A DNA stretch of 64,000 nucleotides from an uncultured virus (IMG/VR IMGVR_UViG_3300006925_000013). Lineage: Duplodnaviria; Heunggongvirae; Uroviricota; Caudoviricetes. Shown here one piece after another: positions 1 to 64,000 of this stretch (positions are counted from its first letter, which is position 1; every line of letters starts with the position of its first letter). The DNA is taken from IMG/VR virus record IMGVR_UViG_3300006925_000013, positions 1-64,000 of that record. One strand, given 5' to 3'. The notes beneath the pieces were generated by a model. The model was given only the letters and a program-made list of their open reading frames with translations, had not been told where the DNA came from and ran no database searches. The translations under genes and the position numbers were made by a program.

Positions 1-1
1 T

Positions 2-136
2 ATGAGTGTGGAAGATTATGAACTCATAGAACCAGTGGTTGAAAGAACTAATATGATGACAGGTAAGAAATTTACCGAGTCAATCAATACGCCTCATTAT
101 ATGAGTCCAAGTTCTGAAAGTTACTGGAGTGCATAA
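2..136 (+). CDS. hypothetical phage protein, probably the 3' end of a gene starting before the window
   Basis: Open frame MSVEDYELIEPVVERTNMMTGKKFTESINTPHYMSPSSESYWSA* ending just before the tRNA; below ORF-track cutoff. Confidence 0.55.
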   Translation: MSVEDYELIEPVVERTNMMTGKKFTESINTPHYMSPSSESYWSA

Positions 137-144
137 TAAAATGT

Positions 145-219
145 GCCCCGTTCGTCTAGTGGTTAGGACACCGGGTTTTCATCTCGGCAACAGGAGTTCG
201 ACTCTCCTACGGGGTACCA
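145..219 (+). tRNA. tRNA-Glu(TTC)
   Basis: Acceptor stem GCCCCGT/ACGGGGT, D arm, anticodon arm CCGGG-TTTTCAT-CTCGG, T loop GTTCGACT, encoded CCA. Confidence 0.95.
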
Positions 220-340
220 ACTAAATAGCGACAAGTAGAGGAGTGTCTTCCGGGTGCCCGGTGTTATACCTCCAAAATCACATAACATAATTTGCCAGTC
301 AATTTTATAATAGTTAAGTGACTTTAAATAAAAACTATAG

Positions 341-368
341 AAGGCGAGTTTTACATTCGCCTTTTTTT
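341..368 (+). terminator. intrinsic terminator
   Basis: AAGGCGA...TCGCCTT hairpin followed by a T run. Confidence 0.75.
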
Positions 369-376
369 ATGACAGC

Positions 377-383
377 ATAAATA
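377..383 (+). promoter_or_regulatory. T4-like late promoter ATAAATA (example; recurs near 1266, 4226, 6127, 6728, 7576, 11923, 18190, 22816, 29289, 29684, 35469, 40131, 61229 and on minus at 6719, 40117, 62513)
   Basis: (G/T)ATAAATA recurs in intergenic gaps just upstream of genes; resembles the T4 gp55 late promoter TATAAATA. Confidence 0.7.
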
Positions 384-388
384 CTAGC

Positions 389-625
389 ATGTCAGATAAG
401 TTGGAAAAGATAATTGGTAAGATTGTCATGGACCTAATGCTTGAAGCACATGCCAAAGGCATTGCATTAAGTTATGAAGACATTTGTAAAATGGTAGGCA
501 TACCTGAACAAGACATCACAGACAGTAACGCATATTTCACAATAAACGACGAGTTCATTGATGCCGTATCTGACAAAGATGTTAGGGAGGCTATGATAGA
601 AAGAGCCTTCTCTACTTTACACTAG
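389..625 (+). CDS. hypothetical protein
   Basis: ORF 5 nt after late promoter. Confidence 0.7.
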   Translation: MSDKLEKIIGKIVMDLMLEAHAKGIALSYEDICKMVGIPEQDITDSNAYFTINDEFIDAVSDKDVREAMIERAFSTLH

Positions 626-633
626 AGAAAATT

Positions 634-843
634 ATGCCAAAGAAAGAACAGAGTCTAGACTCTATACAAAAGCGACAACAAACATATGATGAAAAATGGG
701 GACCATATCAATTACATAAAAGGCATTGCAAAGCATGTAAAAAGACTTTTAAGTGGGCAGGCAGAGCCAAAACAAAAGGCTTCTTACGAGCAATGTTTAA
801 CAAAAACTGCGAAGCCTGTGTTAAAGAATCCCTCAGTATTTAA
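634..843 (+). CDS. small CxxC...CxxC zinc-ribbon-like protein
   Basis: CKAC and CEAC motifs; GAGA upstream. Confidence 0.55.
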   Translation: MPKKEQSLDSIQKRQQTYDEKWGPYQLHKRHCKACKKTFKWAGRAKTKGFLRAMFNKNCEACVKESLSI

Positions 844-1273
844 AGTTGGATTAATATTATTTGGTGCTTTGGTAGTGAGCAGACTTTTACCATTGCCACC
901 AAACAGCGAACCACTATTAGGTTTAGCAGTTCTAACACCTTACTTAACTAAAAACAACCTAGCATTCTTATTACCATTAGGTGTAATGTTTGTGAGTGAT
1001 TTGTTTATAGGTTTCCATAACAGTATGTTAATGACTTATTCAGCATTAGCATTAACACCCTTCATTAGCAAAATGCTAGACAGCAAGTATGTGTCATTAT
1101 TAAGCAGTTGGTTAGTATGGCATGTAATGGCAAACGCAGGCCAATGGTTCCCTCCATTTAGTCCAGAAGCATTGTTATTTGATATTAGATTTTTAATAAG
1201 TGGATTGTCTATTGTTGTACTTTTTGATGTAGTACAAAAAATGACTTCAACTAATTTACAGTATTATAAATAA
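818..1273 (+). CDS. DUF6580/BtuM-like membrane protein (solitary ECF S-component type, putative cobalamin transporter)
   Basis: SRLLPLPPNSEP...LLPLGVMFVSDLFIGF...Y pattern, several TM segments; likely GTG start at 818 rather than 686. Confidence 0.55.
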   Translation: MLKNPSVFKVGLILFGALVVSRLLPLPPNSEPLLGLAVLTPYLTKNNLAFLLPLGVMFVSDLFIGFHNSMLMTYSALALTPFISKMLDSKYVSLLSSWLVWHVMANAGQWFPPFSPEALLFDIRFLISGLSIVVLFDVVQKMTSTNLQYYK

Positions 1274-1282
1274 CACTACTAA

Positions 1283-1358
1283 GGGGCCATAGTTCAGTTG
1301 GGAGAACGTCTGGTTTGCAACCAGAAGGTCCGGGGTTCGAATCCCCGTGGCTCCACCA
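1283..1358 (+). tRNA. tRNA-Ala(TGC)
   Basis: GGGGCCA/TGGCTCC acceptor with G3:U70 Ala identity pair, anticodon arm TCTGG-TTTGCAA-CCAGA, GTTCGAAT, CCA. Confidence 0.95.
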
Positions 1359-1367
1359 GGTATTAAT

Positions 1368-1736
1368 ATGGAATTTAACATTTTATTTTGGCTTTTTACT
1401 AAACATATAATTGCAGATTATTATATGCAATATCCTTGGATGTTCAAGTACAAAGGTACATATGGACACATTGGTGGACTTGCTCATGCAAAACTACACG
1501 GCTTGTTTACTTTTATTGTACTACTAAATTTTGCAAACCCATTAACAGCATTTGTATTAGGTGCCATAGATGCAATATTACATTATCACATAGACTATGC
1601 AAAGAACAAATTATGGGAAAGATTTCCAACTAATCCTTCTGAACAAAAGTATTGGGTAATACACGGAACAGATCAATTAGCACATGGCATGACATATTTC
1701 TTATTAGTACATCTATTGGTCCATGGGCATGTTTGA
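1368..1736 (+). CDS. DUF3307-like membrane protein
   Basis: KHIIADYYMQ, HAKLHG, HYHIDYAK, DQLAH His pattern; start moved to ATG 1368 outside the tRNA. Confidence 0.7.
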   Translation: MEFNILFWLFTKHIIADYYMQYPWMFKYKGTYGHIGGLAHAKLHGLFTFIVLLNFANPLTAFVLGAIDAILHYHIDYAKNKLWERFPTNPSEQKYWVIHGTDQLAHGMTYFLLVHLLVHGHV

Positions 1737-2355: not shown

Positions 2356-2356
2356 T

Positions 2357-2575: not shown

Positions 2576-2885
2576 CATAGTCGACTTGACTGCTTACAGA
2601 GAAAAACTTAAGGCGGCTGAACTCGGTAACGACACTCTATTTGAAGAAACAATAGATGATGTCACAAGAGATCTAACAAAGTTTATGGTTCACTTAGGCA
2701 TGGACTTGGATGTGGATATTACACATGAAAGTTTTGCTGTTTATTGTAGTACTGCCGTTGGCTATTACAAAAAAGCATTACGAGTAGCATATGGTTTAGA
2801 AGATTATAAATCAGAGTTGTCCAATTCAGATGCAACTATATGGGATTTAATAGAGGATATAAACAATAACAAAGATGATGAATAA
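2565..2885 (+). CDS. hypothetical protein
   Basis: Overlapping starts/stops with neighbours. Confidence 0.65.
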   Translation: MKNNIVDLTAYREKLKAAELGNDTLFEETIDDVTRDLTKFMVHLGMDLDVDITHESFAVYCSTAVGYYKKALRVAYGLEDYKSELSNSDATIWDLIEDINNNKDDE

Positions 2886-3864
2886 GAAAACTGAACAAGC
2901 AAATTTAAAAAAGTTAATACTTGATTATAACAGAAAGCCTGTGTTGTCTCCTGCATTTGAAAAACTGCTAGACAGTTACATCAAAAGCGGAAAGTACATG
3001 TCAGTTGAAAAACTGCAAGTGCTACGAAATGATATAGTACAGAACTTAGTTGAGTACGCCAACAAATACAAAATAAGCAACGTCTGTGTTGGACTCAGTG
3101 GAGGCATAGATAGTGCCTTAACTGCAAGTTTATTTAGAGATGCAGGCTATCATGTAATTGGTGTAACAATGCCTATTAATCAAATAGAAGATGAAACAGA
3201 CAGAGGCTTTGAAACAGCAAAGGCACTAGGCATAGACCACAGACATATTGATTTAACAGAAGCATACGAAAGTTTGCTTCAACAAGAATATAAAATTGAT
3301 GCTAGTTTAATCAGCAATGATCACTCTAGTAAGATTAGAAAAGGAAACATTCGAGCCAGATTGCGTATGATTACGTTGTACAATCTTGCTGGTGCGAGTC
3401 AAGGCTTTGTAGCAAGTACTGATAATTTTTCAGAACTAGCCGCAGGGTTTTGGACACTACACGGAGACGTGGGCGATGTATCGCCAATACAATCATTAAG
3501 TAAGAGTTGGGAAGTTCCTGCTCTTGCTGAAATGCAAGGTGTACCCGATAGTGTCGTGTTTGCTGTTCCAACAGATGGATTAGGAATATCTAGTTCAGAC
3601 GAGGATCAGTTTGGGTTCAGTTATCTTGAATTTGATTTAGCCTTATTCAAGTTACTGGAAAATGTAGACGGAGTGGAGTTCGAAAATACCATATCAGATA
3701 TTGCCGGATTCAAAGATGTAAAGGACAAATTAATAGTAGAAGAGGTCGCAAGTAGAATTAGAGGCACAACATACAAGAGATTCAATCCTTATAATCTTGC
3801 ACATACGTTTGAAAAAGATCGATATGATCTACTAGATAAACTAGATAACCAATTGAGGAGATAA
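2875..3864 (+). CDS. nadE: NH3-dependent NAD+ synthetase
   Basis: GLSGGIDS PP-loop, GNIRARLRM, TDNFSE...GFWTLHGD, PTDGL...DEDQFG. Confidence 0.9.
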   Translation: MMNKKTEQANLKKLILDYNRKPVLSPAFEKLLDSYIKSGKYMSVEKLQVLRNDIVQNLVEYANKYKISNVCVGLSGGIDSALTASLFRDAGYHVIGVTMPINQIEDETDRGFETAKALGIDHRHIDLTEAYESLLQQEYKIDASLISNDHSSKIRKGNIRARLRMITLYNLAGASQGFVASTDNFSELAAGFWTLHGDVGDVSPIQSLSKSWEVPALAEMQGVPDSVVFAVPTDGLGISSSDEDQFGFSYLEFDLALFKLLENVDGVEFENTISDIAGFKDVKDKLIVEEVASRIRGTTYKRFNPYNLAHTFEKDRYDLLDKLDNQLRR

Positions 3865-3867
3865 ACC

Positions 3868-4155: not shown

Positions 4156-4180
4156 GCAATACAAGGACCAAGTATTCAAT

Positions 4181-4237: not shown

Positions 4238-6091
4238 ATGCTAAACTTATATCTGTGCCAACCTAACTTTAGATTTGGTATTGCAGGAAAAACTGGTTAC
4301 TGGATTCCTTACAGCATTGGCTGTTTATGGAGTTATGCTAGTCAGTTTGATGATATAAAAGAAAATGTAGATCTCAAAGACATAATATTCCGCAGAGAAA
4401 ATGTAGATACTCTAGTTGATAGACTAGAAGACCCAGACATAATAGCATTTAGTTGTTACATGTGGAACTGGGAATGGAGCAAAGCAGTTGCTCAAAAAGT
4501 CAAACAAAAATATCCTAAATGCAAAATAGTATTTGGTGGCCCACAAGTTACTGATAGACCAGATGAAGAAGAATTCTTTAAGCATCACAAGTATGTAGAC
4601 TCAATTAGTTTAGCAGAAGGCGAATTAAGTTTTACAGATATATTACGAAATCTAATCAACGGCAAACTAATAGAAAAAATATATAACTATCCAAGACTAA
4701 CAGAATTAGACATACCAAGTCCTTACTTAACAGGTGTGTTTGAAAAGATTATAGCAGACAATCCAGGCGTACTATGGAATGGCACATTAGAAACTAATCG
4801 TGGCTGTCCATTTGCTTGTACATTCTGTGACTGGGGTGGCTTAACATATAGTAAACTTAAAAAGTTTCCTGAAGAAAAAGTATTACAAGAACTACATTGG
4901 ATGGCACATAACAAAATGGATTATGTAACAATAGCAGACGCAAACTTTGGTGTGTTTACAGATAGAGATATGAAGTTTACAGAAGAACTTGTAGCATTAC
5001 AAAAAGAGTTTGGCTATCCACAGGTTGTTGATGCCACATGGTATAAGAACAGTTCAGAAGAGATAATGGAAATTGTTAAGAAGTTTATCAGCAGTGGCTT
5101 CAATAGAGGACTAACTTTAAGTGTACAAAGTATGGACATGGATGTACTAGAAGAAATTAAAAGACGTAACATGGAGTTTAGTAATCTCAAACACATATTT
5201 GATATATGTAATAGAGAACAGATACCTAGTTACACAGAACTTATACTAGGCTTACCCAAAGAAACATTTGAAAGTTGGAGTAAAGGTTTATGTGATGTAA
5301 TTGAAATGGGTCAACACAATGCTATTGAAAGTTGGTTAGCACAATTACTAGAGAACGCACACCTTAATACACCTGAGCAAAGAGCAGAACACGAAATAGA
5401 CACGATAGTTGTGAAAGATTATATATCAGGCTTTGAGGAAGAAGATGGCATCAGCGAAAGTGTCACGTTAGTCCGCGGAACTAAGGACATGCCGATGCCT
5501 AAGTTTATAGACAGTTGGATGTATGCTTGGATGATCAATAATTTTCACAACTACGGCTGGACACAGATCATCAGCAGGTTCCTACGCAAGTATAAAGATA
5601 TGAGTTACTTGGAGTTTTATAATAGACTGTGGACACTTATACAAGAAGACGATGGTTATGTTAAGCAGTTATTTGACACAGCAAAAGCACAACTCACAGA
5701 ATACTTAGAGACAGGTATTGCTGATGGCTTTAGTGGACATACACTTATGTGGTCAGCACAAAGCGACTTTCACAAGGAGCCACTAAAAATATTTCAGTTC
5801 ATTGATAAGCATTACAGTAGAGAATGGTTAGACTTGCCAGAGAAGTATTACCCACAACTTATGAAACTACAAACGTTTTATGTTAGCCACCTAACTGTAT
5901 CTTATCCAACACAAATGAATTTTGGATATAACTTTTTAGAATACATCAATGATGAGGACTCAGAATTATTAAAAGACAAAACAGAATACACCTTAGATTT
6001 AATCATGCCATGCGACAGTGAAGAAGAATACTTAGACAGAATGTATTACAAAAGAAGACAAGGTTGGGGCAAAGTTTTGTTTTCCACTTAA
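4238..6091 (+). CDS. B12-binding radical SAM protein
   Basis: N-terminal B12-binding-like domain (FSCYMWN, VFGGPQ, EGE); ETNRGCPFACTFCDW; ADANFG. Confidence 0.85.
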   Translation: MLNLYLCQPNFRFGIAGKTGYWIPYSIGCLWSYASQFDDIKENVDLKDIIFRRENVDTLVDRLEDPDIIAFSCYMWNWEWSKAVAQKVKQKYPKCKIVFGGPQVTDRPDEEEFFKHHKYVDSISLAEGELSFTDILRNLINGKLIEKIYNYPRLTELDIPSPYLTGVFEKIIADNPGVLWNGTLETNRGCPFACTFCDWGGLTYSKLKKFPEEKVLQELHWMAHNKMDYVTIADANFGVFTDRDMKFTEELVALQKEFGYPQVVDATWYKNSSEEIMEIVKKFISSGFNRGLTLSVQSMDMDVLEEIKRRNMEFSNLKHIFDICNREQIPSYTELILGLPKETFESWSKGLCDVIEMGQHNAIESWLAQLLENAHLNTPEQRAEHEIDTIVVKDYISGFEEEDGISESVTLVRGTKDMPMPKFIDSWMYAWMINNFHNYGWTQIISRFLRKYKDMSYLEFYNRLWTLIQEDDGYVKQLFDTAKAQLTEYLETGIADGFSGHTLMWSAQSDFHKEPLKIFQFIDKHYSREWLDLPEKYYPQLMKLQTFYVSHLTVSYPTQMNFGYNFLEYINDEDSELLKDKTEYTLDLIMPCDSEEEYLDRMYYKRRQGWGKVLFST

Positions 6092-11323: not shown

Positions 11324-11914
11324 ATGAATTTTATACCTTATGTAGTAGAAAAAGTAGCAGGTGGCGAACGTAGTTACGACATCTACAGCAGATTATTAAA
11401 AGAAAGAATTGTATTTTTAAATGGCGAAGTAAACGATCAGGTATCAAATAGTATTTGTGCTCAGTTACTTTTCTTAGAAGCAGAAGACAGTACAGAAGAT
11501 ATTAATTTTTATATTAACTCACCAGGTGGCGTAGTTACTGCTGGTATGGCAATGTATGACACAATGCAATATATCAAACCAGATGTGTCAACTATTGTTA
11601 TGGGGCAGGCATGTAGTATGGGCAGTCTACTTGCAACAGCAGGAGCACCTGGTAAAAGATTTATGCTACCAAAAGCAAGACATATGATACACCAGCCAAG
11701 TGGTGGTGCAAGAGGACAGCAATCAGATATCGAAATTGCCGCACAAGAAATACGCAGAATGCGAACAGAATTAACTGAGATCTATGTAAAACATAACAGC
11801 AAAGGAAAAACCTTTGAAGAGGTTAATGCTGACATAGAACGTGATAATTTTATGACAGCCAATGAGGCGTTAGATTACGGGTTGATAGACGAGATTGTTG
11901 ATAAACGTCCATAG
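11324..11914 (+). CDS. clpP: ATP-dependent Clp protease proteolytic subunit
   Basis: [35 protein letters not shown]. Confidence 0.97.
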
Positions 11915-18201: not shown

Positions 18202-19743
18202 ATGAAAAAGAAAGCAGTTGTTATATCTGAATCTAACAAACAAAAGCCAAGAATATCTAAAGAAATAATTCGTTCTACTTTTCCAGCAAACTACAGATCT
18301 TTAGGTGCTCATGTTATCAAACACGAGTTTGAAAAGTTAGGTGTAGAATCAACTGTTATAGATTTTTGTTTTCATTTTGACGAAGAAGACTTAATCAAAG
18401 GTGTAATAAATTTTTTACGCAATTCAGATGTACAGTTTATATGTATAAGTGCCACTCTATCTATGGGACTAGAGCAAGAGTATATTGCACTTGCTCGTAA
18501 AATTAAAAGTAAATTGCCTAATGCAAAAATATTATATGGAGGCAATAGAAGAGTACAACGTAACGACATGGAATACATGAAACATTGCGATGGTATTTTC
18601 TTAGGTAGATGTGCAGAAATGCTAACAGATTTTGTTGCTGGTAAAGACATGTCAAAGTTTATACAAAATCCAGAGTTTACAAATATTTTTGCTAACCATA
18701 ATTATAATTATGACATTGAAAAACCTATTACATACGGTTTATTTAAAGATGATGACTTTTTAGAATCTACTGACGTAATAGGATTTGAAGTTGCATTAGG
18801 CTGTAAATTTAATTGTAGTTTTTGCAATTATCCATTACGAGCGTCTAAGACTTTATATATGAATTGCGAAGAGCAACTTTATTACACAATGCAACACGCA
18901 TATGATACATACGGTATTACACACTTTTACGCCGCAGACGATACAATTAATGAGTCAGATGAAAAACTTGAATTACTTGCTAAAGTTGTTAATAAATTAA
19001 GTTTCAAACCCAGAATAACATCTTTTGCTAGACTTGATGTTATGGCAAAAAGACCTCACCAGATTGATTTGTATAAAGAAATTGGAATGAATGGTGCTAA
19101 CTTTGGTATAGAAAGTTTTGGTAATGCCGCAATAAAAGCCACAAGAAAGAAAAGCACAATAGAAGATCTTGTGTATGTTTCTCAAAGGTTAAGAAAAGAA
19201 ATAGATGACTTTTGGATTAGTTCAGGTTTTATATTTGGATTAGCAAACGACAGTTACGAAGAGTTTGAAAAAAATTTAAGATACTGTGAAGACAATTTAC
19301 TTGTTGATAATGCTGGTACTATAACATTAATCATTGAGCCTAAAAAGAATCATCCTGGCTACAAAGACTTTGGAGGAGAATGGTTAGCATGGGACGAAGG
19401 CGCCTTTGCTGATATAGATATATACCCAGAAAGATTTGGTTACACCATAGACGAAAATACATTAGAATGGTCAAACGAATACACTAATAAATCAGAAGCA
19501 AAAGAACGTACTGACATAGCCTCGAAAGCAATACAAAAAAGAAATGTCATAACAAATCATATTGAAGCATTTACTTGGCAAAGTGTCATGGCACAAGGCA
19601 TAGCATCATCAAGAAACGACTGGTATGAACAAAAAGAAACCTTGTCAGGATTAGGTCTTGTTCAAAAAGCAACTTATATTACAGATCAAACAGTAAATAG
19701 GTATGTAAATAAAAAATTAAATTGGTTACTTAATGAAGTATAA
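18202..19743 (+). CDS. radical SAM protein with B12-binding-like N-terminus
   Basis: GCKFNCSFC, ADDTIN, FGIES, GFIFGL. Confidence 0.8.
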   Translation: MKKKAVVISESNKQKPRISKEIIRSTFPANYRSLGAHVIKHEFEKLGVESTVIDFCFHFDEEDLIKGVINFLRNSDVQFICISATLSMGLEQEYIALARKIKSKLPNAKILYGGNRRVQRNDMEYMKHCDGIFLGRCAEMLTDFVAGKDMSKFIQNPEFTNIFANHNYNYDIEKPITYGLFKDDDFLESTDVIGFEVALGCKFNCSFCNYPLRASKTLYMNCEEQLYYTMQHAYDTYGITHFYAADDTINESDEKLELLAKVVNKLSFKPRITSFARLDVMAKRPHQIDLYKEIGMNGANFGIESFGNAAIKATRKKSTIEDLVYVSQRLRKEIDDFWISSGFIFGLANDSYEEFEKNLRYCEDNLLVDNAGTITLIIEPKKNHPGYKDFGGEWLAWDEGAFADIDIYPERFGYTIDENTLEWSNEYTNKSEAKERTDIASKAIQKRNVITNHIEAFTWQSVMAQGIASSRNDWYEQKETLSGLGLVQKATYITDQTVNRYVNKKLNWLLNEV

Positions 19744-20530
19744 AATAGGAATTATAGGTAAAGGTTTTGTAGGAAGTGCTGTCAGTGATGGCTTTTCTAA
19801 TATAGAACAGTACGTGGTGGATCCTAAAATTTCAGAGGACAACACAATTGATAAACTTGTCAATGACTTTGATCCACCACTTACTTTCGTTTGTGTTCCG
19901 ACACCACCTAATGAAGACGGTAGTGTTAATGTAGACATTGTTACTGAAGTTCTACAAGAATTAAACGATTGTGAGTATAAAGGTATAGTTGTTGTTAAAA
20001 GCACAATTATACCTGACTACTTACATATATTTAAAAAATCCTACAAATTAAAAATAGTTTATAATCCAGAGTTTCTCACTGAAGCAAATGCTTCACAGGA
20101 CTTTGTTAATCCAAACATGCAAGTACTCGGAGGGAAATGGAAAGACTGCGACACAGTTGAAAAAGCATACAATAGGTATAGCAATGTGAGAGTAGTTCCG
20201 ACATTCAAAGTAGACTTGAGTACTGCAAGTTTGATTAAGTATACTATTAATAGTTGGTTAGCAACTAAAGTTGTTTTCTTTAATGAACTATACAACCTAC
20301 AACAAGCAAGTAGCAGTATGGTTAGTTGGGATCAGTTTACAGATATGCTAACAAGAGATCCACGCATGGGCAATAGTCATATGAAAGTGCCCGGGACTGA
20401 TGGCGAGTTTGGCTTTGGTGGACATTGTTTTCCTAAGGACACAGAAGCATTAATCAATTATGCTCAAAGTAAAAACATTAAATTATCACTGCTAGAAAAA
20501 GCAGTTAGTAAAAACAAGAAGATAAGATGA
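19733..20530 (+). CDS. UDP-glucose/GDP-mannose 6-dehydrogenase family (short, no C-terminal domain)
   Basis: GKGFVG, CVPTP, VKST, NPEFL, GFGGHCFPKD. Confidence 0.9.
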   Translation: MKYKIGIIGKGFVGSAVSDGFSNIEQYVVDPKISEDNTIDKLVNDFDPPLTFVCVPTPPNEDGSVNVDIVTEVLQELNDCEYKGIVVVKSTIIPDYLHIFKKSYKLKIVYNPEFLTEANASQDFVNPNMQVLGGKWKDCDTVEKAYNRYSNVRVVPTFKVDLSTASLIKYTINSWLATKVVFFNELYNLQQASSSMVSWDQFTDMLTRDPRMGNSHMKVPGTDGEFGFGGHCFPKDTEALINYAQSKNIKLSLLEKAVSKNKKIR

Positions 20531-20946
20531 TAGCAACTATAGAACCCATAGTAGAAACACTAGAAGCATTAGAAACTGATTTAGACCGTTATGAATACTT
20601 AATTGAATTAGGCGACAGTCTTGCAGGTATTGGTGTTACAGAAATGATTAATGACGAAAACTATGTTGCAGGATGTCAAAGCGATGTGTGGTTAACACAC
20701 ATACTAGACGAAAACAATACATTGCAATTCTATGCACATTCAGACAGTAAACTTGTTAAAGGTTTATTACATATTTTAGTAGAGGCATTCAGTGGTTACC
20801 AACCAAATGATATGCTTAATTTTAACATGTCTTCCGTACAAAAGATACCATTAGGTGCTCAACTTAGTATGCAAAGACAAATTGGTATGATGAGTGTGTT
20901 TAGGAAAATGCAATACATATCAAAACAATATACAGCATCAGCATGA
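20527..20946 (+). CDS. sufE: SufE/CsdE Fe-S sulfur-acceptor protein
   Basis: YEYLIELG, VAGCQSDVW, SDSKLVKGL, LSMQR. Confidence 0.88.
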   Translation: MIATIEPIVETLEALETDLDRYEYLIELGDSLAGIGVTEMINDENYVAGCQSDVWLTHILDENNTLQFYAHSDSKLVKGLLHILVEAFSGYQPNDMLNFNMSSVQKIPLGAQLSMQRQIGMMSVFRKMQYISKQYTASA

Positions 20947-25246: not shown

Positions 25247-26056
25247 ATGGATCACTACCAAACATTGGGGGTTAGCCGCGATGCTGATGCCTCCGCTATC
25301 AAAAAAGCATATCGCAAATTAGCGAGTAAGCATCATCCTGACAAAGGCGGTAACCCTGAAGAATTCAAAAGAGTGCAAGAAGCATACGACACACTAAGTG
25401 ATCCACAAAAACGTAGTCAGTATGATAATCCTAATCCTTTTGAAGGCTTTGGTGGTGGTGATCCTTTTAGTGGCGCCAATCCGTTTGGAGATATATTTAG
25501 AGATATATTTGGACAAAGAGGTCAACGTCGTAGAGAACAAAACTTTGATGCTCAAACAGATATACTATTATCATTGGAAGATGTGTTTTTTGGTGTAACA
25601 AAAAGAATAGATGTTGGTACAGGTGTTATAGATCTCAATATACCAAAAGGCACAGAAGAAGGTACTCGTTTCACTTTACATGGCAAAGGCCCACAGCAAG
25701 ATCCTAACTTACCGCCAGGTAATTTATTTGTAAGAGTCAGATATCAGCCACATAGAGAATTTGCTAAAAATGGTAACGACCTTATTGGTATTGTAGAAAT
25801 TGATTATCTAGAAGCCATTGTTGGTACCACTATTGAAGTTAGGCATGTTAATGGCAGGATGTTATCAGTAAACATTCCGGCACTAACACAACCTAACTCT
25901 AGACTTAAATTAAGAGGAGAGGGTTTTACAAATCCACGTAGCAGTATAGTAGGAGACTTCCTTTTACAAGTGTCTGTTACTGCACCCGAATCCATAGATC
26001 ATGATCATGTTAACCTTATACGAAGAATTAATCAAGAACGTAGGAGAAATAATTAA
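25247..26056 (+). CDS. dnaJ: DnaJ-class chaperone (class B/CbpA-like, no Zn finger)
   Basis: J domain with HPD, G/F region, C-terminal substrate domains. Confidence 0.92.
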
Positions 26057-26064
26057 ATACTATT

Positions 26065-42380: not shown

Positions 42381-42641
42381 ATGAGTCTGACTGTAGAAAA
42401 GGTATATTTATTTGACATGCAATGGACAGATGATGCTGACTATGAGCACATCTTCGAAGATCGCCTGCATGACACAATGATTCCTTTCTTTGCATTTGGT
42501 GAAGAAGCAACCTTTTCTAGAGAAGTAGACTATACAAGCAGTTATAAACCAGTAGCAAAAATATATGCAAAGTTTATAACAGAGGCAAGCAAATATAAAT
42601 TTATGTTAAAATATTCGGACAAATTAAATGAGTTACGTTGA
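42381..42641 (+). CDS. hypothetical protein
   Basis: ATG 6 nt after TTGACA-16-TATACT (42347-42374). Confidence 0.6.
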   Translation: MSLTVEKVYLFDMQWTDDADYEHIFEDRLHDTMIPFFAFGEEATFSREVDYTSSYKPVAKIYAKFITEASKYKFMLKYSDKLNELR

Positions 42642-45333
42642 CGCAGTTTTTGAACAGAACAAAGGCATAGTAAGAGTCGTTGAACGTACTAAAGAGGGCG
42701 AACGCAAGATTATTGATCACCCTATGCGATACTACTTTTATGTAGATGATCCTAAAGGCAAACAGCATAGTGTGTATGGCGACCCAGTAAGTAAGATTAC
42801 AGCAAACAATTGGAAAGACTTTAAACGTAATGTTGCATTGTATCAAAACAAACGCACATATGAAAGTGATCTAAAACCTGTAAACAGAGTATTAGCAGAT
42901 CATTACTTGGGCATGGATGCACCAGACTTACACAAATGCTTTTTTGATATCGAGGTAGACTTTGATCCAGATAGAGGTTATAGTTCTCCTGAAGATGCAT
43001 TTATGCCTATTACCAGTATCAGTGTTTACTTAGACTGGATGGATAAGATTGTTTGTTTAGCAGTTCCGCCTAAGACACTTAATTGGGAACAAGCACAAAA
43101 GATAGCAGATAATGTAGGCGACACTATATTGTTTGGTAATGAAAAAGCAATGTTAGATGCTTTTCTTAGTCTCATAGATGATGCAGATATATTGAGTGGT
43201 TGGAACAGTGAAGGTTATGATATTCCTTATACTGTAAACAGAATTATCAAAGTGTTAGGTAAAAGCGAAACAAGACGTCTGTGTTTACTAGACAAAAACG
43301 TGATTAAAAGAGAATATGTTAATCACGGTAGAGAAACACAAACATATGACTTAGTAGGTCGTGTACACTTAGACTATATGCAACTGTACAGAAAGTATAA
43401 CTATGAAGAGCGTCATAGTTACAGACTAGACTACATTGGTGAAATGGAAGTAGGTGAAAAGAAAGTTGTGTATGATGGTAGTTTAGACAGACTATACAAT
43501 CACGACTTTGAACTGTTCTTAGAGTATAACATACAAGACACAATGCTACTTAAGAAACTAGATGATAAGTTGCAGTTTATAAGTCTTGCCAGTGAGATTG
43601 CACATCAAAATACAGTATTACTTCCAGTAACAATGGGTGCGGTACAGACTATTGACCAAGCAATAGTTAATGAAGCACACAGACGTGGCATGGTTGTTCC
43701 TGATAGAAATAGAACTAAAGATTCAGATAACCCATGGGGGCATACAGTAGCAGGTGCCTATGTGGCATTTCCTAAGAAAGGTATGCATGAATGGGTAGGG
43801 TCGATGGACATAAACAGTCTGTATCCTAGTGTCATTAGAGCATTGAATATGGCTCCTGAAACTATTGTAGGACAACTAAGGCAAGAGTACACAGATAAAG
43901 AAATTACAGAAAAAATGCAAATAGAAAAGAAATCATTTGCAGATGCATGGGCAGGTAAGTTTGGTACTAATGAATATGAAATGGTTATGGCTAAAGATGT
44001 TGACAAGCCACTTATATTAGACTTAGAAGACAAAAGAGAAATTAGTGTTAAAGGTGCTGACGTGTATAACATGCTGTTTAATAGCGAGGAGCCATGGTGC
44101 ATTAGTGCAAATGGTACTGTATATAGAACAGACGTACAAGGTATTATACCCGGTCTATTAGAGAAATGGTATTCAGAGAGACAAGAATTACAGGCTAAAA
44201 AGAAACAAGCAACAACACCAGAGGACATAGCATTCTGGGATAAGAGACAGTTAGTTAGAAAAATTTTACTTAACAGTACATATGGTGCTATTTGTAATCC
44301 AGGTAGTAGGTTCTTTGACCATAGAATAGGACAAAGTACAACACTCACTGGTAGAGCAATTACTAGACACATGGGAGCAGAAACAAACAAAATGTTGACT
44401 GGCGAATATGATCACACAGGCGATACTATTGTTTATGGTGATACTGACTCTGTATATTTTAGTGCTCATGAAATTAGTAAAAAGCAAGATATTGAGTTAG
44501 ACATGGATAGTGCTATTGCATTATATGATAATATTTCAGATACAGTTAGTGACTCTTTCCCTTCATTTGCTAAACAGGCCTTTAACATTTCTACTAGTCA
44601 AGGTAATATACTTAAAGCAGGTAGAGAAGTTGTTGGTAGAGCAGGTATCTTTATTACTAAGAAAAGGTATGCTATCAATGTATTAGACTTAGAAGGTTGG
44701 CAACCAGAAGGCGGAAAACTTAAAGTAATGGGCCTAGATCTTAAGAGATCAGACACACCTGAGTTTGTGCAAGACTTCTTAAGTGACATACTAGGGCAGA
44801 CACTAAACGGTGACGGTGAAACAAAAGTACTTGCAAGTGTAAGAGAGTTTAAGAAGGAGTTCAAAGCAATGGACTCTTGGAAGAAAGGTATGCCTAAAAG
44901 GGTAAACAACTTAACATATTACACAGAAGCATACAATAAAGCATTCAGTATGAACAAGAGTGCTAGTCTTTACAAGTTAGAAAAACTCAAAGACGAAAAG
45001 AAAGTAATGATTCCTGGGCATGTTAGAGCAAGTATTAACTGGAATAACATGTTAAAAGCAAACAGTGATCAATACAGTATGCAAATAACAGATGGTATGA
45101 AAGTAATTGTGTGCAGGTTAAAGAGTAATGCAATGGGTTATACAAGTATTGCATACCCAACAGATGAAATGCATATACCAGATTGGTTTAAACAACTGCC
45201 TTTTGATGACGATGCAATGGAAGAGGCAGTAGTTGATAAGAAAGTAGAAAACTTATTGAATGTACTAAAATGGGATTTGTCGCAGACAGATACTAGTAAT
45301 ACATTCCATAGTTTATTTGATTTTGATGATTAA
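42628..45333 (+). CDS. family B DNA polymerase
   Basis: Exo I FDIE, Exo II GWNSEGYD, YNIQD; DINSLYPS, KILLNSTYG, YGDTDS, KKRY. Confidence 0.97.
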   Translation: MSYVDAVFEQNKGIVRVVERTKEGERKIIDHPMRYYFYVDDPKGKQHSVYGDPVSKITANNWKDFKRNVALYQNKRTYESDLKPVNRVLADHYLGMDAPDLHKCFFDIEVDFDPDRGYSSPEDAFMPITSISVYLDWMDKIVCLAVPPKTLNWEQAQKIADNVGDTILFGNEKAMLDAFLSLIDDADILSGWNSEGYDIPYTVNRIIKVLGKSETRRLCLLDKNVIKREYVNHGRETQTYDLVGRVHLDYMQLYRKYNYEERHSYRLDYIGEMEVGEKKVVYDGSLDRLYNHDFELFLEYNIQDTMLLKKLDDKLQFISLASEIAHQNTVLLPVTMGAVQTIDQAIVNEAHRRGMVVPDRNRTKDSDNPWGHTVAGAYVAFPKKGMHEWVGSMDINSLYPSVIRALNMAPETIVGQLRQEYTDKEITEKMQIEKKSFADAWAGKFGTNEYEMVMAKDVDKPLILDLEDKREISVKGADVYNMLFNSEEPWCISANGTVYRTDVQGIIPGLLEKWYSERQELQAKKKQATTPEDIAFWDKRQLVRKILLNSTYGAICNPGSRFFDHRIGQSTTLTGRAITRHMGAETNKMLTGEYDHTGDTIVYGDTDSVYFSAHEISKKQDIELDMDSAIALYDNISDTVSDSFPSFAKQAFNISTSQGNILKAGREVVGRAGIFITKKRYAINVLDLEGWQPEGGKLKVMGLDLKRSDTPEFVQDFLSDILGQTLNGDGETKVLASVREFKKEFKAMDSWKKGMPKRVNNLTYYTEAYNKAFSMNKSASLYKLEKLKDEKKVMIPGHVRASINWNNMLKANSDQYSMQITDGMKVIVCRLKSNAMGYTSIAYPTDEMHIPDWFKQLPFDDDAMEEAVVDKKVENLLNVLKWDLSQTDTSNTFHSLFDFDD

Positions 45334-47895: not shown

Positions 47896-48401
47896 TGGAT
47901 AGAGAAGGACACGAAGACGTAAAGTTTTTTGTTGGTACTGAGGTAGAGCAATCTCCTGCATACGGACAAAAAACATTATTTGTAGTTGGTTATCAGCCTA
48001 AGGAAGAAATACTTGCTAGGGCATTAAACAGCGGGTGTCCACATATCTATTTGGGTGCCAACCAAAGTTTCAACCCTCCAACTGATAAGGATTGGCAGGG
48101 TTGGGACGAACTTATTACTGGACTTTTAAAAGATGATATTTGGATTACGTTAGACTTTGATGTTAGTTTAGCAGAAAGAGTATTAGAATGTGGCTGGACT
48201 GAGTATAGTACATTTATACCAATGATTAGTGTTAAGTTACCTTACATTAATCAATTTAACTACAATGCTACACTTAAACTAGATGACAAAGACTTTAAAG
48301 CAACTAATCCAGGTGTTTGGTGTCATAGTTTACATGAACTACAAAATAGAAAAGGATTTACAGACTGGACAAAATATACCAAAGACGAGGTTATTGATTA
48401 A
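47895..48401 (+). CDS. hypothetical protein neighbouring dpdA
   Basis: FVGTEVE, HIYLGANQSF, DDKDFKATNPGVWCH. Confidence 0.75.
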   Translation: MDREGHEDVKFFVGTEVEQSPAYGQKTLFVVGYQPKEEILARALNSGCPHIYLGANQSFNPPTDKDWQGWDELITGLLKDDIWITLDFDVSLAERVLECGWTEYSTFIPMISVKLPYINQFNYNATLKLDDKDFKATNPGVWCHSLHELQNRKGFTDWTKYTKDEVID

Positions 48402-48994
48402 TGCGAGACAAGTTAGCAATGAGCATGACAAAGTTTTTTCGCTTTATAGCAGATACATTCTTTGCTAAACGTTATGGTCATAGAGCAGTTGTATTAGAAA
48501 CAGTAGCAGGTGTTCCTGGCATGGTTGCTGGTATGTGGTTACACATGAAAAGCCTGCGTAAGATGAAAGTTGGGTATGGGCCTGACATAAGAGAGATGTT
48601 AGCAGAAGCAGAGAATGAAAGAATGCACTTAATGTTCTTTATTGAGATAGCACAACCTAATTGGTTTGAAAGGTATTTGGTTTTGTTTGCTCAATTTATT
48701 TTTATGTTATTTTACTCTGTATTGTATATAATAGATTACAAAACAGCACACAGAATGATTGCTTACTTTGAAGAAGAGGCAGTAAGAAGTTATACTAGTT
48801 ATTTAGAATTAGTTGAAAGTGGTGAAGTGCCAAATGTACCTGCACCTAAACTTGCTATCAAATATTATAAAATGAAGGATGATGCTAAGTTAAGTGATTT
48901 GATTAAAAAAGTTAGAGCAGATGAACAACATCACAGCAAAATTAATCACAAGTACGCAGATGGCGATACATCATTTAAAAGGAAAAACGGTTGA
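48401..48994 (+). CDS. aox: alternative oxidase (di-iron ubiquinol oxidase)
   Basis: LETVAGVPGM, EAENERMHL, FEEEAVRSY, RADEQHH. Confidence 0.93.
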   Translation: MRDKLAMSMTKFFRFIADTFFAKRYGHRAVVLETVAGVPGMVAGMWLHMKSLRKMKVGYGPDIREMLAEAENERMHLMFFIEIAQPNWFERYLVLFAQFIFMLFYSVLYIIDYKTAHRMIAYFEEEAVRSYTSYLELVESGEVPNVPAPKLAIKYYKMKDDAKLSDLIKKVRADEQHHSKINHKYADGDTSFKRKNG

Positions 48995-56185: not shown

Positions 56186-56363
56186 TGTCTTAGAAGCAAG
56201 GCACAGAGAGTTAGATAAAGCAATTAACGAGGAGTATGATCATTATGATAATGATGAAATTGTTAAAAAGCACAAATTTCAGAAACTTAAACTCAAGCAA
56301 GACATCGAACAACTTAAACATGAAATTTCTATAAAGGAGAAAGAAGAACATGGAAACAAGTAA
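56151..56363 (+). CDS. DUF465/YdcH-like coiled-coil protein
   Basis: HRELDKAI...KFQKLKLKQDI. Confidence 0.65.
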   Translation: MSTSRSLKNHLSVLEARHRELDKAINEEYDHYDNDEIVKKHKFQKLKLKQDIEQLKHEISIKEKEEHGNK

Positions 56364-57039
56364 AAAAATTAAACAAAGATTAGTTGAGGCAGGCAAAAGA
56401 CATTGGGCCGGCGACAATATCTCTGACTTTATTGAAGACGGAGAGAAGCAACAACTGATTGACGAACTTGCGGTTAAGTTCGAGGATGTATTACAAGGCT
56501 TGGTTATTGATACTGAAAATGATCCTAACAGTAATGATACTGGTAGGCGTCTTGCTAAAATGTATATTAATGAACTAATGGCTGGTAGATACGAAAACAT
56601 GCCTAATGCAACTGCTTTCCCTAACGACAGCGAAGATAGATATGAAGGTATGCTGGTTGTAAGAAGTGAACTCACAAGTATGTGTTCACATCACCATCAG
56701 ATTGTTAGAGGTGTGGCATACATTGGTATCATTGCCGCAGACAAACTAATTGGTTTGAGTAAGTACACTAGGATTGCACAATGGTGTGCGGCTAGAGGTA
56801 CATTACAAGAAGAACTTGCTAACGACATTGTTAGAGAGATTCAAAAAGCAACAGGGGCCGAGCACTTAGGTGTGTATGTACAAGCCACACATGGTTGCGT
56901 AGAGAACAGAGGTGTTAAGGCACATAGTAGTCTTACACAAACAACTGTATTAAAAGGCGCATTTAAAAATGACGCAGGTACAAAGAAAGAGTTTATGGAT
57001 AACATTAAACTACAACAACAATATTCTTGCGATAAGTAA
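56350..57039 (+). CDS. folE: GTP cyclohydrolase I
   Basis: DPNSNDTGRRLAKMY, SMCSHH, GLSK, QE, ATHGCVENRGV. Confidence 0.93.
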   Translation: METSKKIKQRLVEAGKRHWAGDNISDFIEDGEKQQLIDELAVKFEDVLQGLVIDTENDPNSNDTGRRLAKMYINELMAGRYENMPNATAFPNDSEDRYEGMLVVRSELTSMCSHHHQIVRGVAYIGIIAADKLIGLSKYTRIAQWCAARGTLQEELANDIVREIQKATGAEHLGVYVQATHGCVENRGVKAHSSLTQTTVLKGAFKNDAGTKKEFMDNIKLQQQYSCDK

Positions 57040-57926
57040 TGACATTAAAGTATAGCGAAACATTTTATTCAGCACAAGGGGAAGGCCAGTATGTAGGTAT
57101 CCCTAGTCTGTGGATGAGATTCTTCCTATGCAATTTACAATGTAATGGCTTTGGACAAAAAGACCCAACAGACCCTAGCACATATGATTTACCATATGAA
57201 AAATTAGATATCACAGACATCACTAATGTATTTGATTTACCTGTGTTTGAAAAAGGTTGTGATAGCAGTTACACTTGGAGTAAGAAATATAAACATCTTA
57301 TCACTGATAAAACTGTAGATGAAGCCGTAGACGAACTTACAGCACTTCTACCGCACGGTAAGTTTGTACACCCAGTTACACAACAAAACGCACACATGGT
57401 CTTTACAGGCGGCGAGCCAATGCTTAAAAACACACAGCCTGGCATGATGAACATTATAGAAGAGTTCAAACGCAGAGATAATATGCCAATGAACGTTACT
57501 GTGGAAACTAACGGCACCAAGCCTATCACAGATGAATTTGCTGATTGGGTACATCGTAATTATACAGGTTGGATAGGCAGAGAATGGTATTGGAGTTTAT
57601 CGCCTAAGTTATGGAGTACTGCTGGTGAGAAGCCTAAGAAAGCAATACAGCCAGAAGTAATTGGTAGATATGCTGAAGTAAGTCCTAAAGGACAATTGAA
57701 GTTTGTTGTTAATGGCTCAGAAGCAAGTTGGCAAGAAGTGGAAGACAATGTAAAACTGTTTAGAGATGCTGGCTGTAATTTCCCTGTATGGATTATGGGA
57801 GTTGGCGGCACATTTGAAGGCTTAGTACAAACTGAAGCCACCATTGCCGATGAGGCTATACAACGTGGATACAATTATACAAGCAGAGTCCACGTTCATA
57901 TATACGGAAATGCAATAGGAAAATAA
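57039..57926 (+). CDS. queE: 7-carboxy-7-deazaguanine synthase (radical SAM)
   Basis: ETFYSAQGEG, CNLQC...CDS with insertion, TGGEP, VETNG, SPK. Confidence 0.85.
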   Translation: MTLKYSETFYSAQGEGQYVGIPSLWMRFFLCNLQCNGFGQKDPTDPSTYDLPYEKLDITDITNVFDLPVFEKGCDSSYTWSKKYKHLITDKTVDEAVDELTALLPHGKFVHPVTQQNAHMVFTGGEPMLKNTQPGMMNIIEEFKRRDNMPMNVTVETNGTKPITDEFADWVHRNYTGWIGREWYWSLSPKLWSTAGEKPKKAIQPEVIGRYAEVSPKGQLKFVVNGSEASWQEVEDNVKLFRDAGCNFPVWIMGVGGTFEGLVQTEATIADEAIQRGYNYTSRVHVHIYGNAIGK

Positions 57927-61205: not shown

Positions 61206-61253
61206 AGTATGTTTTAACTGTATTTTAGATAAATAAAAGTACAGGAGACATAC

Positions 61254-61568: not shown

Positions 61569-61956
61569 TTTACAATATAAAATAGTAGATAAAATCAAAC
61601 AAGAATTAGATATTAGTCAGTATTCTGTACTTGACATTATGCCTTTGTTTTTTAAAAATCACAGGATTAGAGGTAACAAGGTTATAGGAGTTAGACTCAC
61701 CAAGTACGGTTTAACACTTATGGAAAAGAGTTTTACTTGCTATAATTTTAAACTAGATAACTTTAAATTATCAAACAAAGCAGTAGTTAAACTAGATCAA
61801 ACTATGCAATGGCCTTACTTTGTAGACAATAAAAAGTTAGTGCTATTCAGCGAAAAGGATTCTGTTATACTTAAACTGAAAGGTCAGAACTTGGAGAAAT
61901 GGTTACAAGGTCTCCGCAAACCAAAAAATCCTACCAAAGACGATCTCTCTGAGTAA
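61534..61956 (+). CDS. hypothetical protein
   Basis: Overlapping ORF; start uncertain. Confidence 0.6.
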   Translation: MKMKSKMAIQNSLQYKIVDKIKQELDISQYSVLDIMPLFFKNHRIRGNKVIGVRLTKYGLTLMEKSFTCYNFKLDNFKLSNKAVVKLDQTMQWPYFVDNKKLVLFSEKDSVILKLKGQNLEKWLQGLRKPKNPTKDDLSE

Positions 61957-62006
61957 ATATTAATGTACATTAACGTACATACACACTGACACACAAGGAG
62001 AAAATT

Positions 62007-62219
62007 ATGTCACAAGGAAAAAGTGGGTTCGAACTACGAACCGATATCTTAGGAATGGCAATGGGCATGTTAGAAAATAACAGAGACCAGGAAGTACATT
62101 CATTTTACAGTATCCCAGAAGATCACAGAGAAGGTAAATCAGCACCGGTTATCTGGATCTCTCCGGAGGAAGTAATCAATACAGCCAAAGAACTTTACGC
62201 ATTCGTTAACGAAAAGTAA
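62007..62219 (+). CDS. hypothetical protein
   Basis: AAGGAG SD after AC-rich leader. Confidence 0.75.
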   Translation: MSQGKSGFELRTDILGMAMGMLENNRDQEVHSFYSIPEDHREGKSAPVIWISPEEVINTAKELYAFVNEK

Positions 62220-62236
62220 GTATTTAGGTACTGTAT

Positions 62237-62263
62237 AAAAAAAGGGTCCTAGGACCCTTTTTT
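62237..62263. terminator. bidirectional terminator
   Basis: A7-GGGTCCTAGGACCC-T6 palindrome between convergent ORFs. Confidence 0.85.
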
Positions 62264-62274
62264 AGTGGTTGTGT

Positions 62275-62400
62275 CTACGATGCAATTATATCTTGCACGT
62301 TTTCCATACGACCTGATTTCATCAGTGTATCTAATTTTTTCCAAGTGACCAATGCGAAACGATGAGTTGCACTGGCTACTATTCCTAAGGACTTCGCCAT
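62275..62400 (-). CDS. 41-aa micro-protein MAKSLGIVASATHRFALVTWKKLDTLMKSGRMENVQDIIAS
   Basis: Minus-strand AGGAG SD, late promoter at 62513-62519, ends at terminator. Confidence 0.65.
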   Translation of the reverse strand: MAKSLGIVASATHRFALVTWKKLDTLMKSGRMENVQDIIAS

Positions 62401-62556
62401 GTTATTCTCCTGTGATATTCTAACATAACTGCTAGTAGGTTTGCAGTAACTTCATCCCTATTGGGCTCTGTTACAGAATACCAAACTCTATGTTACAATT
62501 ATGTTACAAAAGTATTTATCATTTGTACGAAAATCATACAATTTTTACTGAAAATA

Positions 62557-62600
62557 GGTTGACCAGTACCCCAAAATTTAGTATAATATATGCATAATTT
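62557..62600 (+). promoter_or_regulatory. early-type promoter
   Basis: GGTTGACC-17-TATAATATATGCATAATTT. Confidence 0.75.
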
Positions 62601-62620
62601 GTAAAAAGGTAGGAGTTTTT

Positions 62621-63091
62621 ATGTACAAAGTATTTCAAATCAAGTTAAGTGACGAAGTTACAGATTTCGTTAATTCTAACGACAGAGGACACACAGGTGC
62701 CGCTGAAAAATATCCTGAGTATAACGCACACATGGAAGTGATGCGAGGTGCTGAAGGTTTCAAGGGAGAAATGTTTAATCATTATACCCAAGTTTGTGAA
62801 GTTGCTCACTTTGAAGACAGCAACTTAGAAGAAGTATTCAAAATTTTGAATGGTTACTACTATGATGACGACACTGGTTTAGATCAGTGGTTCGACACAT
62901 TCGTAAGTGGTTTCAAAATGAAGACGTTCACTAGGAAAGATGGTGAGGTTGTTACATATCGTGACATGCATTCTCTTTCAGTTGGCGACATTGTATTTGA
63001 TTCAGTTGATGATTCATATCACATTGTTGATAGTTGGGGTTTTAAGGACATCACTTCTGATGTTCTTTCAGGAGTTCAACAAGTAGCATAA
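62621..63091 (+). CDS. YodL-like domain protein
   Basis: LEEVFKILN...HSLSVGDIV...VDSWGF. Confidence 0.6.
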   Translation: MYKVFQIKLSDEVTDFVNSNDRGHTGAAEKYPEYNAHMEVMRGAEGFKGEMFNHYTQVCEVAHFEDSNLEEVFKILNGYYYDDDTGLDQWFDTFVSGFKMKTFTRKDGEVVTYRDMHSLSVGDIVFDSVDDSYHIVDSWGFKDITSDVLSGVQQVA

Positions 63092-63306
63092 TGGAATACG
63101 TCGAATCTTTGGATTATAAAATCCGTTACTTAGATAAATTTAGTGCTAGGGCAGGTAAACATAATTGGATATCTGACCCTAAAACTTATTCTGATAGTGA
63201 CGTTTTCCTTAGGTTAGATGAGTTACAAGCATTAGGCTACTTGGTTGAATTAACTTTTAATTTAAAAAATAAGAAAGAAAAGGTTGACCTAGGTCAGGTT
63301 TTTTAG
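63091..63306 (+). CDS. hypothetical protein
   Basis: Coupled start; 3' end overlaps next promoter. Confidence 0.5.
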   Translation: MEYVESLDYKIRYLDKFSARAGKHNWISDPKTYSDSDVFLRLDELQALGYLVELTFNLKNKKEKVDLGQVF

Positions 63307-63322
63307 TATAATATATACATAT
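63282..63322 (+). promoter_or_regulatory. early-type promoter
   Basis: GGTTGACC-17-TATAATATATACATA. Confidence 0.75.
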
Positions 63323-63347
63323 TAAATAATTTCGTAGGAGTAATTAT

Positions 63348-64000
63348 ATGTCAGATAACATTCGAACAGTAAAACTAAGCAGGGCAAAGAACCACATCAA
63401 ACGTGCTTTCTCTAAAAAACGTCCTGTATTCATTTGGGGTCCTCCAGGAGTTGGTAAGTCCGACGTACTGGCTCAGATCGCTGAAGAAGGTAACAACCTT
63501 TTAATTGATTTGAGAATGGCTTTGCTAGACCCAACAGATATCAAAGGGTATCCTTACAGAGATGAGGACACTAACAAAATGATGTGGGCGGCACCTGCCG
63601 AACTACCATCAGAAGAACTTGCTAGTCAGTATGAAACTGTCTTCTTGTTCTTAGACGAACTTAACTCTGCACCTCCAAGTGTGCAGGCAACTGCTTACCA
63701 GTTGATCCTTAACCGTAGGGTTGGACAATATGTATTACCAGATAACGTGGTAATTGCGGCGGCTGGTAATAGAGACACTGATAAAGGTGTTACTTACAGG
63801 ATGCCAAGTCCTTTAGCAAACAGATTCCTTCACTTAGAAGTTGAAGTTAATCATGACGATTGGCAGTCTTGGGCAGTTGATAATGACATCAACCCAGATG
63901 TTGTTGGTTACTTGGCTTTTGCTAAACAAGACCTTTTTGACTTTGATCCAAAGAGTTCAAGCAGGAGTTTTGCTACTCCTAGGTCTTGGGCATTCGTTAG
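63348..64000 (+). CDS. MoxR-like AAA+ ATPase (truncated by window end)
   Basis: WGPPGVGKS, LFLDELNSA, AAGNR, LANRF. Confidence 0.85.
   Translation, partial: MSDNIRTVKLSRAKNHIKRAFSKKRPVFIWGPPGVGKSDVLAQIAEEGNNLLIDLRMALLDPTDIKGYPYRDEDTNKMMWAAPAELPSEELASQYETVFLFLDELNSAPPSVQATAYQLILNRRVGQYVLPDNVVIAAAGNRDTDKGVTYRMPSPLANRFLHLEVEVNHDDWQSWAVDNDINPDVVGYLAFAKQDLFDFDPKSSSRSFATPRSWAFV

Follow-up and report, generated by a model that had tools for sequence, protein, structure and literature searches.

An uncultured virus record, IMGVR_UViG_3300006925_000013, lacks every copy of AGCT, the AluI site, and of GCWGC (GCAGC/GCTGC) in the 64,000 bases analyzed here (the window; the full contig has 71,186 bases). 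We conclude that the zero for AGCT probably reflects self-protection of the phage from its own methylase-free restriction endonuclease, a predicted enzyme here named P0001, and is not a fingerprint of the host. The zero is read in this way because, among P0001 carriers, it tracks the absence of a methylase and because the same relation recurs with an RsaI-like gene and GTAC.

An earlier note on this DNA had reported a window-wide loss of both words from reading by eye, and exact counting bears this out, as AGCT, GCAGC, and GCTGC each occur zero times in the window and in the full contig. By comparison, a maximal-order Markov model expects 160 AGCT and 57 GCWGC, and shuffling synonymous codons (102 open reading frames, 200 shuffles) leads to an expectation of 194.8±10.7 (minimum 165) and 69.3±4.2 (minimum 58), respectively. 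The loss is visible in codon choice: the Ala-Ala pairs, said to avoid GCA and GCT in first place, begin in 70 of 70 cases with GCC (37) or GCG (33), and the six places quoted for them are real, the last one lying at 63756/63759. Similarly, the claim that GCT does not follow a codon ending in A holds for all 477 Ala codons in this position (GCA 397, GCC 58, GCG 22, GCT 0). AGCT is also missing from the 4,654 non-coding bases of the window and from a tRNA-Ala stem (Table 1), while a tRNA-Met lacks it in the close records G001 and G002 and retains it in the AGCT-tolerant relative G003. Between the genome of the window and G002, an 87% relative, we counted 258 changes at the one position by which a site differs from AGCT, none of which created AGCT, suggesting that the purge is still ongoing. 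In 23 loci matched by their DNA polymerase (85–100% identity), GCWGC is zero in all 23 and AGCT in 22, with one copy in the other, and neither word occurs in the close records (about 200 kb non-redundant). Among the polymerase-picked loci L024-L075, three of 52 have zero AGCT and the median is 0.56 of expectation.

P0001 is encoded to the left of the window in record G001, which is 99.9–100% identical over the entire 71-kb contig and extends further left. The protein has no Pfam or NCBIfam match, and tblastn against cultured phages and plasmids gave none; its structure model (predicted local distance difference test score, pLDDT, 92) has restriction enzymes as its best structural matches among 48,161 chains. 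Specifically, the model aligns with NaeI (Z 10.3, root-mean-square deviation (rmsd) 3.5, 140 residues) and 3ndh (Z 9.4, rmsd 4.0, 165 residues), followed by NhoI (Z 8.2), DpnI (8.1), SwaI (7.0), and PvuII (6.2). The residues D64, E75, and K77 of a D..ExK site are invariant in 34 homologs, and a ratio of nonsynonymous to synonymous substitution rates of 0.05–0.13 in eight close variants documents purifying selection. As modeled, P0001 has the PD-(D/E)xK fold of restriction enzymes, its catalytic residues are intact, and its predicted target, judged from site loss in carriers, is AGCT. Contigs from one RNA-library sample span parts of the gene, although contigs cannot show transcription. Two further small PD-(D/E)xK-like reading frames with no Pfam match and no visible partner methylase were noticed in L231:4108-4551 (G008) and L130:8976-9764.

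The P0001 family comprises 344 representatives at 50% identity, and many members stand beside a DNA methyltransferase. In jumbo phages, a beta-class N6/N4 methylase often follows; in three giant-virus-type contigs the homologs adjoin a C5 methylase; and in Haloarcula regularis the homolog follows two methylases. For the lineage of the window, there is no methylase within 4.2 kb upstream of P0001 (L138, 99.98% identical), in the 13.8 kb downstream, or through the window. A C5 methylase (PF00145) was detected in 0 of 50 records and an N6/N4 methylase in none of G001, G002, G004, G005, G023-G027, and G042-G045, together about 200 kb non-redundant of a genome of about 365 kb. In the part of the genome covered, P0001 has no cognate methylase that would complete a Type II restriction-modification system.

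To relate the state of the methylase to AGCT, we combined 41 viral loci with the 80 top-ranking ones among 238 metagenome loci, kept those scoring at least 150 bits (a cut-off that removed L097, which is partial, and L134, L135, and L136, which are divergent or partial), and clustered them at 80% identity. The resulting 31 clusters are methylase-free in nine cases, paired with a methylase in 16, mixed in three, and unknown in three; three clusters with fewer than 10 expected AGCT sites were left out of the comparison. AGCT is zero in nine of nine methylase-free clusters (0 observed/465 expected) vs. two of 14 paired clusters (72/474; Fisher p=7e-5). On a tree of 32 tips, the state of the methylase changes no fewer than 10 times, and sister loci differ accordingly in AGCT copies: 0 in L214 vs. 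28 in L198 and 7 in L110, 0 in L125 vs. 2 in L167, and 0 in L118 vs. 10 in L159. Long records, for which the expectation is based on dinucleotides, show the same division: methylase-free carriers have none (G001 0/371, G002 0/360, G007 0/378, G008 0/373, G015 0/138, G016 0/135), while paired carriers keep 2–13% (G006 19/784, G009 99/934, G010 45/406, G011 41/312). Records with no visible P0001 homolog have 375/720 (G017), 679/688 (G018), and 109/493 (G003).

The RsaI/GTAC case, which was found after AGCT had been deduced for P0001, allows the method to be checked on a named enzyme, the target of RsaI being GTAC. Record G075 has 0/202 GTAC while its relative G079 has 77/140, and a solitary RsaI-like gene is unique to G075 (Table 1). 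An unrelated T4-like phage with a 57% homolog has 0/51 GTAC and 50/81 AGCT, while the homologs carried by cyanophages Syn19 and ACG-2014j bear the annotation R.RsaI, adjoin a methylase, and coexist with 20/32 and 19/37 GTAC. The sequence link from P0001 to the RsaI-like gene is weak (E 4e-5 in a four-protein comparison), and a model of the RsaI-like protein folded from its sequence alone reached a pLDDT of 37 and was not used. A distant homolog of P0001 is gene 72 of the cultured cyanophage S-SM1, which has no methylase among the 23 features neighboring this gene and, in the 156 kb examined, 0/423 GTAC and 0/163 CCGG. A weaker case is an extra nuclease with an alpha-class methylase, in a cassette unrelated to P0001, that was gained by the 85% relative G029, in which TGCA is low (21/92).

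Complete losses of CATG, CTAG, GTAC, or GATC mark particular lineages of the same phage family. CATG is completely or almost completely lost in L279-L283, L363-L365, and L402-L404, and CTAG in L284-L290, L304, and L394-L401; no enzyme was recognized among the unique reading frames of these CATG-zero and CTAG-zero lineages. GATC is lost to the same degree in G007, G008, G015, G016, and L433, again with no enzyme recognized. We also note that several six-base palindromes, e.g. ACGCGT and AGCGCT, are missing in further jumbo phages of this family, G017, G018, G009, and G006.

We suggest that P0001 would be a small Type IIP-like enzyme derived from a two-gene restriction-modification cassette. Expressed in infection, it would cut unprotected DNA of the host or of a co-infecting phage, with nucleotide salvage, host shut-off, or competition as possible benefits, and any new AGCT in phage DNA would likewise be cut, holding the site at exactly zero. 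The path to this state may have led from gain of the cassette over partial site loss under imperfect methylation to loss of the methylase, at which point the count would become fixed at zero. We infer the cleavage by P0001, its exact target, its expression, its benefit, and this order of events alike.

Several observations weigh against this explanation. The P0001 gene lies outside the window and is known from the near-identical record G001, and a distant methylase could lie in the ~45% of the genome outside the about 200 kb covered. Foldseek found no match of P0001 in the PDB at E<=0.001, and the modification-dependent enzymes DpnI, NhoI, and Eco15I score nearly as high as the classical ones. 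The names and structures of the partner methylases are uninformative on their target, and many nodes of the 32-tip tree have low support. Some relatives do not follow the rule: there is little or no AGCT loss in L134 (57/89), L135 (21/32), and L136 (26/25) or in haloarchaeal loci (7/18, 26/27), and the short unclassified loci L191 (8/9), L192 (3/6), and L206 (2/6) keep AGCT. Conversely, G003 has AGCT at 22% of expectation and no P0001 homolog in the 32% of its genome available, and of 80 control loci chosen by a neighboring ATPase, 11 have zero AGCT and 34 do not exceed 0.15, while P0001 was found in none of the 50 longest control records (4–28% complete). The TGCA-linked cassette is accompanied by depletion in only two of four carriers. 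Finally, gene-presence association, a motif scan, and a wider profile did not reveal an enzyme for GCWGC.

The strongest alternative, which we nevertheless consider unlikely, is that AluI-like and TseI/BbvI-like systems of hosts, with others at lower frequency, drove the avoidance and that P0001 is a passenger gene; methylase loss would then have been possible only since the host had already removed AGCT. Near-total loss of Type II palindromes, as observed here, is what such a history would leave, and restriction-site avoidance is well documented in the available text of PMC6286503, PMC7230728, and PMC12707154. The graded depletion of further words (GCGC, CGCG, TACGTA, GTTAAC) resembles exposure to many systems, AGCT is low in many relatives with no visible enzyme, and GCWGC is zero over a wide marine clade in which no enzyme was found. 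However, avoidance driven by hosts predicts neither the division between zero and partial loss according to the phage's own methylase, repeated over about 10 switches, nor the RsaI/GTAC replicate, and an enzyme directed against a host-methylated site would be useless on the host, yet P0001 is under purifying selection. Moreover, the available text of PMC6329791, PMC8919816, and PMC11033074 gives AGCT methylation for Thaumarchaeota and GCWGC methylation for Chloroflexi, and the portions available of the first two do not give both in one host. Strong selection by a sequence-specific nuclease, as postulated by the earlier note, is supported, while its placing of this nuclease in the host is for AGCT less likely than a solitary endonuclease of the phage, which makes AGCT a poor fingerprint for host prediction; its host restriction keeps its place as a candidate for GCWGC and for the less strongly depleted words, none of which could be matched with an enzyme of the phage.

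A much less probable possibility is that P0001 is modification-dependent and cuts methylated AGCT in the host, the phage avoiding AGCT to escape marking by the host methylase. In its favor, the best structural matches include DpnI, NhoI, and Eco15I, and AGCT methylation as N4-methylcytosine is described for aquatic microbes in the available text of PMC6329791 and PMC8919816. Yet methylases accompany members of the family time and again, and the carriers that have one tolerate AGCT, which fits a protective role of methylation, the opposite of what this model assumes. Least probable of all is incompatibility with 7-deazaguanine or a bias of codons, tRNAs, or mutation: FolE and QueE are encoded in the window, a QueD-like gene in G003, and CG is depleted overall, but two codon-preserving nulls rule out codon or amino-acid bias (195 AGCT and 69 GCWGC are still expected), the loss reaches non-coding DNA and a tRNA stem, no member of the tRNA-guanine transglycosylase family PF01702 turned up in 30 partial records (the DpdA-specific model was not run), and G029, which has FolE and QueE too, loses the extra word TGCA. 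The guanine modification assumed earlier finds no support in these data, and G-containing sites such as GATC, GGCC, and CCGG are close to expectation.

Because GCWGC is zero in a wider marine clade including AGCT-tolerant members (G003 0/123, G052, G055, G072), its cause is separate from that of AGCT. The word stands at 13–19% of expectation in G007, G008, G015, and G016 and is normal in G006, G009, G017, and G018; methylase-free P0001 carriers are poor in it (19/119 vs. 180/165), a shortage that a shared host could explain. The loss of GCWGC is probably due to a second nuclease, with an about even chance that it is the phage's own and a somewhat smaller one that it is the host's. The candidates are a phage nuclease encoded in the portion of the genome outside the records covered and a TseI/BbvI-type system of the host.

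Of the words listed as present by the earlier note, GATC, GGCC, GTAC, TGCA, and CCGG are at 0.81–0.98 of expectation, while GCGC, also present, is strongly depleted (7 vs. 56). A second tier of depleted words had been overlooked, with observed vs. expected counts of 0/30 for AGCGC, 4/52 for AGCGT, 1/29 for AGCCC, 4/21 for CGCG, 0/18 for TACGTA, and 4/18 for GTTAAC. Among bipartite Type I motifs, none was convincing except GCAN5TGC (2 vs. 14). Avoidance of RGCY (CviJI-type) was rejected with GGCC and AGCC close to expectation, and GANTC, as for hosts with CcrM, is not depleted (122 vs. 135). Star activity of P0001 was rejected as the source of the second tier, as the AGCT-free L098 retains 17/25 ACGCT, 15/16 GGGCT, and 15/17 GCGCT. 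Window-wide, ACGCT, GCGCT, and GGGCT are nearly absent, and of the 25 different contexts in which ACGCT survives in the clade, 23 read ACGCTC.

As judged from its sequence, the window comes from an uncultured marine jumbo phage that is distant kin of Phosso, Atu_ph07, and Rak2-like phages: the DNA polymerase shares 48% identity with that of Sinorhizobium phage Phosso, 43.5% with that of Atu_ph07, and about 41% with those of Rak2-like phages, and the runs holding the nuclease region of close relatives carry a marine label. CheckV estimates ~19% completeness for the window; the genome size of roughly 365 kb is derived from completeness values. Clues from ClpP, cluster names, and the provirus-flagged record G055, which has phage-like word counts throughout, indicated no host, and most marine jumbo phages have no assigned host in the available text of PMC9123017. 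The window carries a host-like gene set of alternative oxidase, ClpP, DnaJ, ClpA/B, SufE, NAD synthetase, and two B12 radical-SAM genes. G003 contains a Suf-type Fe-S assembly cluster on a phage (L090:10862-16177), adjoining ClpS and with a peroxiredoxin close by; the cluster was identified by reading the sequence, the Pfam scan covering the peroxiredoxin only.

Table 1 Features of the window and of related records
Feature	Location	Strand	Remark
Total absence of AGCT	1..64000	both	coding and non-coding; 0 vs 195±11
Total absence of GCWGC	1..64000		0 vs 69±4
Second-tier depleted words AGCGC, AGCGT, AGCCC, GCGC, CGCG, TACGTA, GTTAAC, GCAN5TGC	1..64000
tRNA-Ala(TGC)	1283..1358	+	D-stem AGTT, Rfam tRNA consensus AGCT; pair kept
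Family B DNA polymerase	42628..45333	+	used for phage placement
FolE and QueE (7-deazaguanine precursor genes)	56350..57926	+	no link to motif loss found
Host-like gene set	48401-48994, 11324-11914, 25247-28242, 20527-20946, 2875-3864, 4238-6091, 18202-19743
P0001, putative AGCT restriction endonuclease, 187 aa	outside window, 13.8-14.4 kb left of position 1; G001:C1:91421-91981	+ (window orientation)	minus strand of G001
Solitary RsaI-like gene, 153 aa	L387:2943-3404		G075
57% homolog of the G075 RsaI-like gene	L433:9983-10447		unrelated T4-like phage
S-SM1 gene 72, distant P0001 homolog	GU071094.1:43522-44034 (L442:3023-3535)		E 4e-8, template-modeling (TM) score 0.68
Nuclease and alpha-class methylase cassette	L238:10368-12127 (G029)		gained

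Missing sites are usually taken as a footprint of host defense and used for guesses of the host; that AGCT follows a phage gene reverses this reading. Because P0001 has no Pfam or NCBIfam match, solitary phage restriction enzymes may be undercounted. We tentatively speculate, with a little less than even confidence, that marine lytic phages repeatedly convert restriction-modification cassettes into methylase-free weapons, with deletion of the target as the only self-protection. If so, each lineage would have at least one small unannotated restriction enzyme marked by its own zero (AGCT, GCWGC, GTAC, CATG, CTAG, GATC), k-mers missing from a genome would tell what new restriction enzymes recognize, and the losses of GCGC in Rak2-like phages and of AGCT in A-clade pandoraviruses could have arisen in this way too. 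The analysis yields a candidate AGCT cutter and a way of deducing what an enzyme recognizes from the words that are absent; gene 72 of S-SM1 provides a test case from a cultured phage, and the published question of why some viruses entirely lack one 4-mer can be tested concretely.

A literature search of titles and abstract openings (few subscription journals, no supplements) returned nothing on methylase-free phage restriction enzymes shielded by site loss; the available text of PMC4176335 counts 12 solitary restriction enzymes in 831 phage genomes. P0001 resembles the NaeI catalytic domain, 3ndh, PvuII, and RsaI-type small enzymes in fold (Z 6–10), D..ExK site, and small size and differs from them in about 10–14% identity, in belonging to no Pfam or NCBIfam family, and in its predicted target AGCT.

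Total loss of one 4-mer from a large virus genome is shared with A-clade pandoraviruses, whose AGCT loss was left unexplained, and with five Rak2-like jumbo phages, distant kin of the phage studied here that lack GCGC, in the available text of bioRxiv 10.1101/712018. In agreement with the latter, four 20-kb regions (80 kb) of 121Q (NC_025447.1) have 0/38 GCGC; no P0001 gene was found in 121Q, and a HinP1I-type gene in none of 121Q, Phosso, and Atu_ph07. No pandoravirus homolog of P0001 is among the 50 listed viral structure matches or 10 long homologs, pandoravirus genomes not having been searched directly. That a P0001-like enzyme underlies the pandoravirus and Rak2-like losses is put forward as a hypothesis only.

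Avoidance of restriction sites in prokaryotic viruses, as described in the available text of Rusinov 2018 (PMC6286503) and for HF1-group haloviruses (PMC7230728), is similar in the complete loss of 4–5-base palindromes that are Type II sites, HRTV-7 lacking AGCT; however, the portions available credit host enzymes, whereas here the AGCT zero follows a phage-borne gene. A close parallel is provided by virus-borne Type II restriction-modification pairs, which the available text of PMC7253447 describes for chloroviruses and marseilleviruses and to which those of Syn19 and ACG-2014j can be added: they, too, involve a 4-base enzyme, and many P0001 homologs are part of such pairs. Unlike these, the lineage of the window has no methylase near P0001 or in about 200 kb, and every site has been removed.

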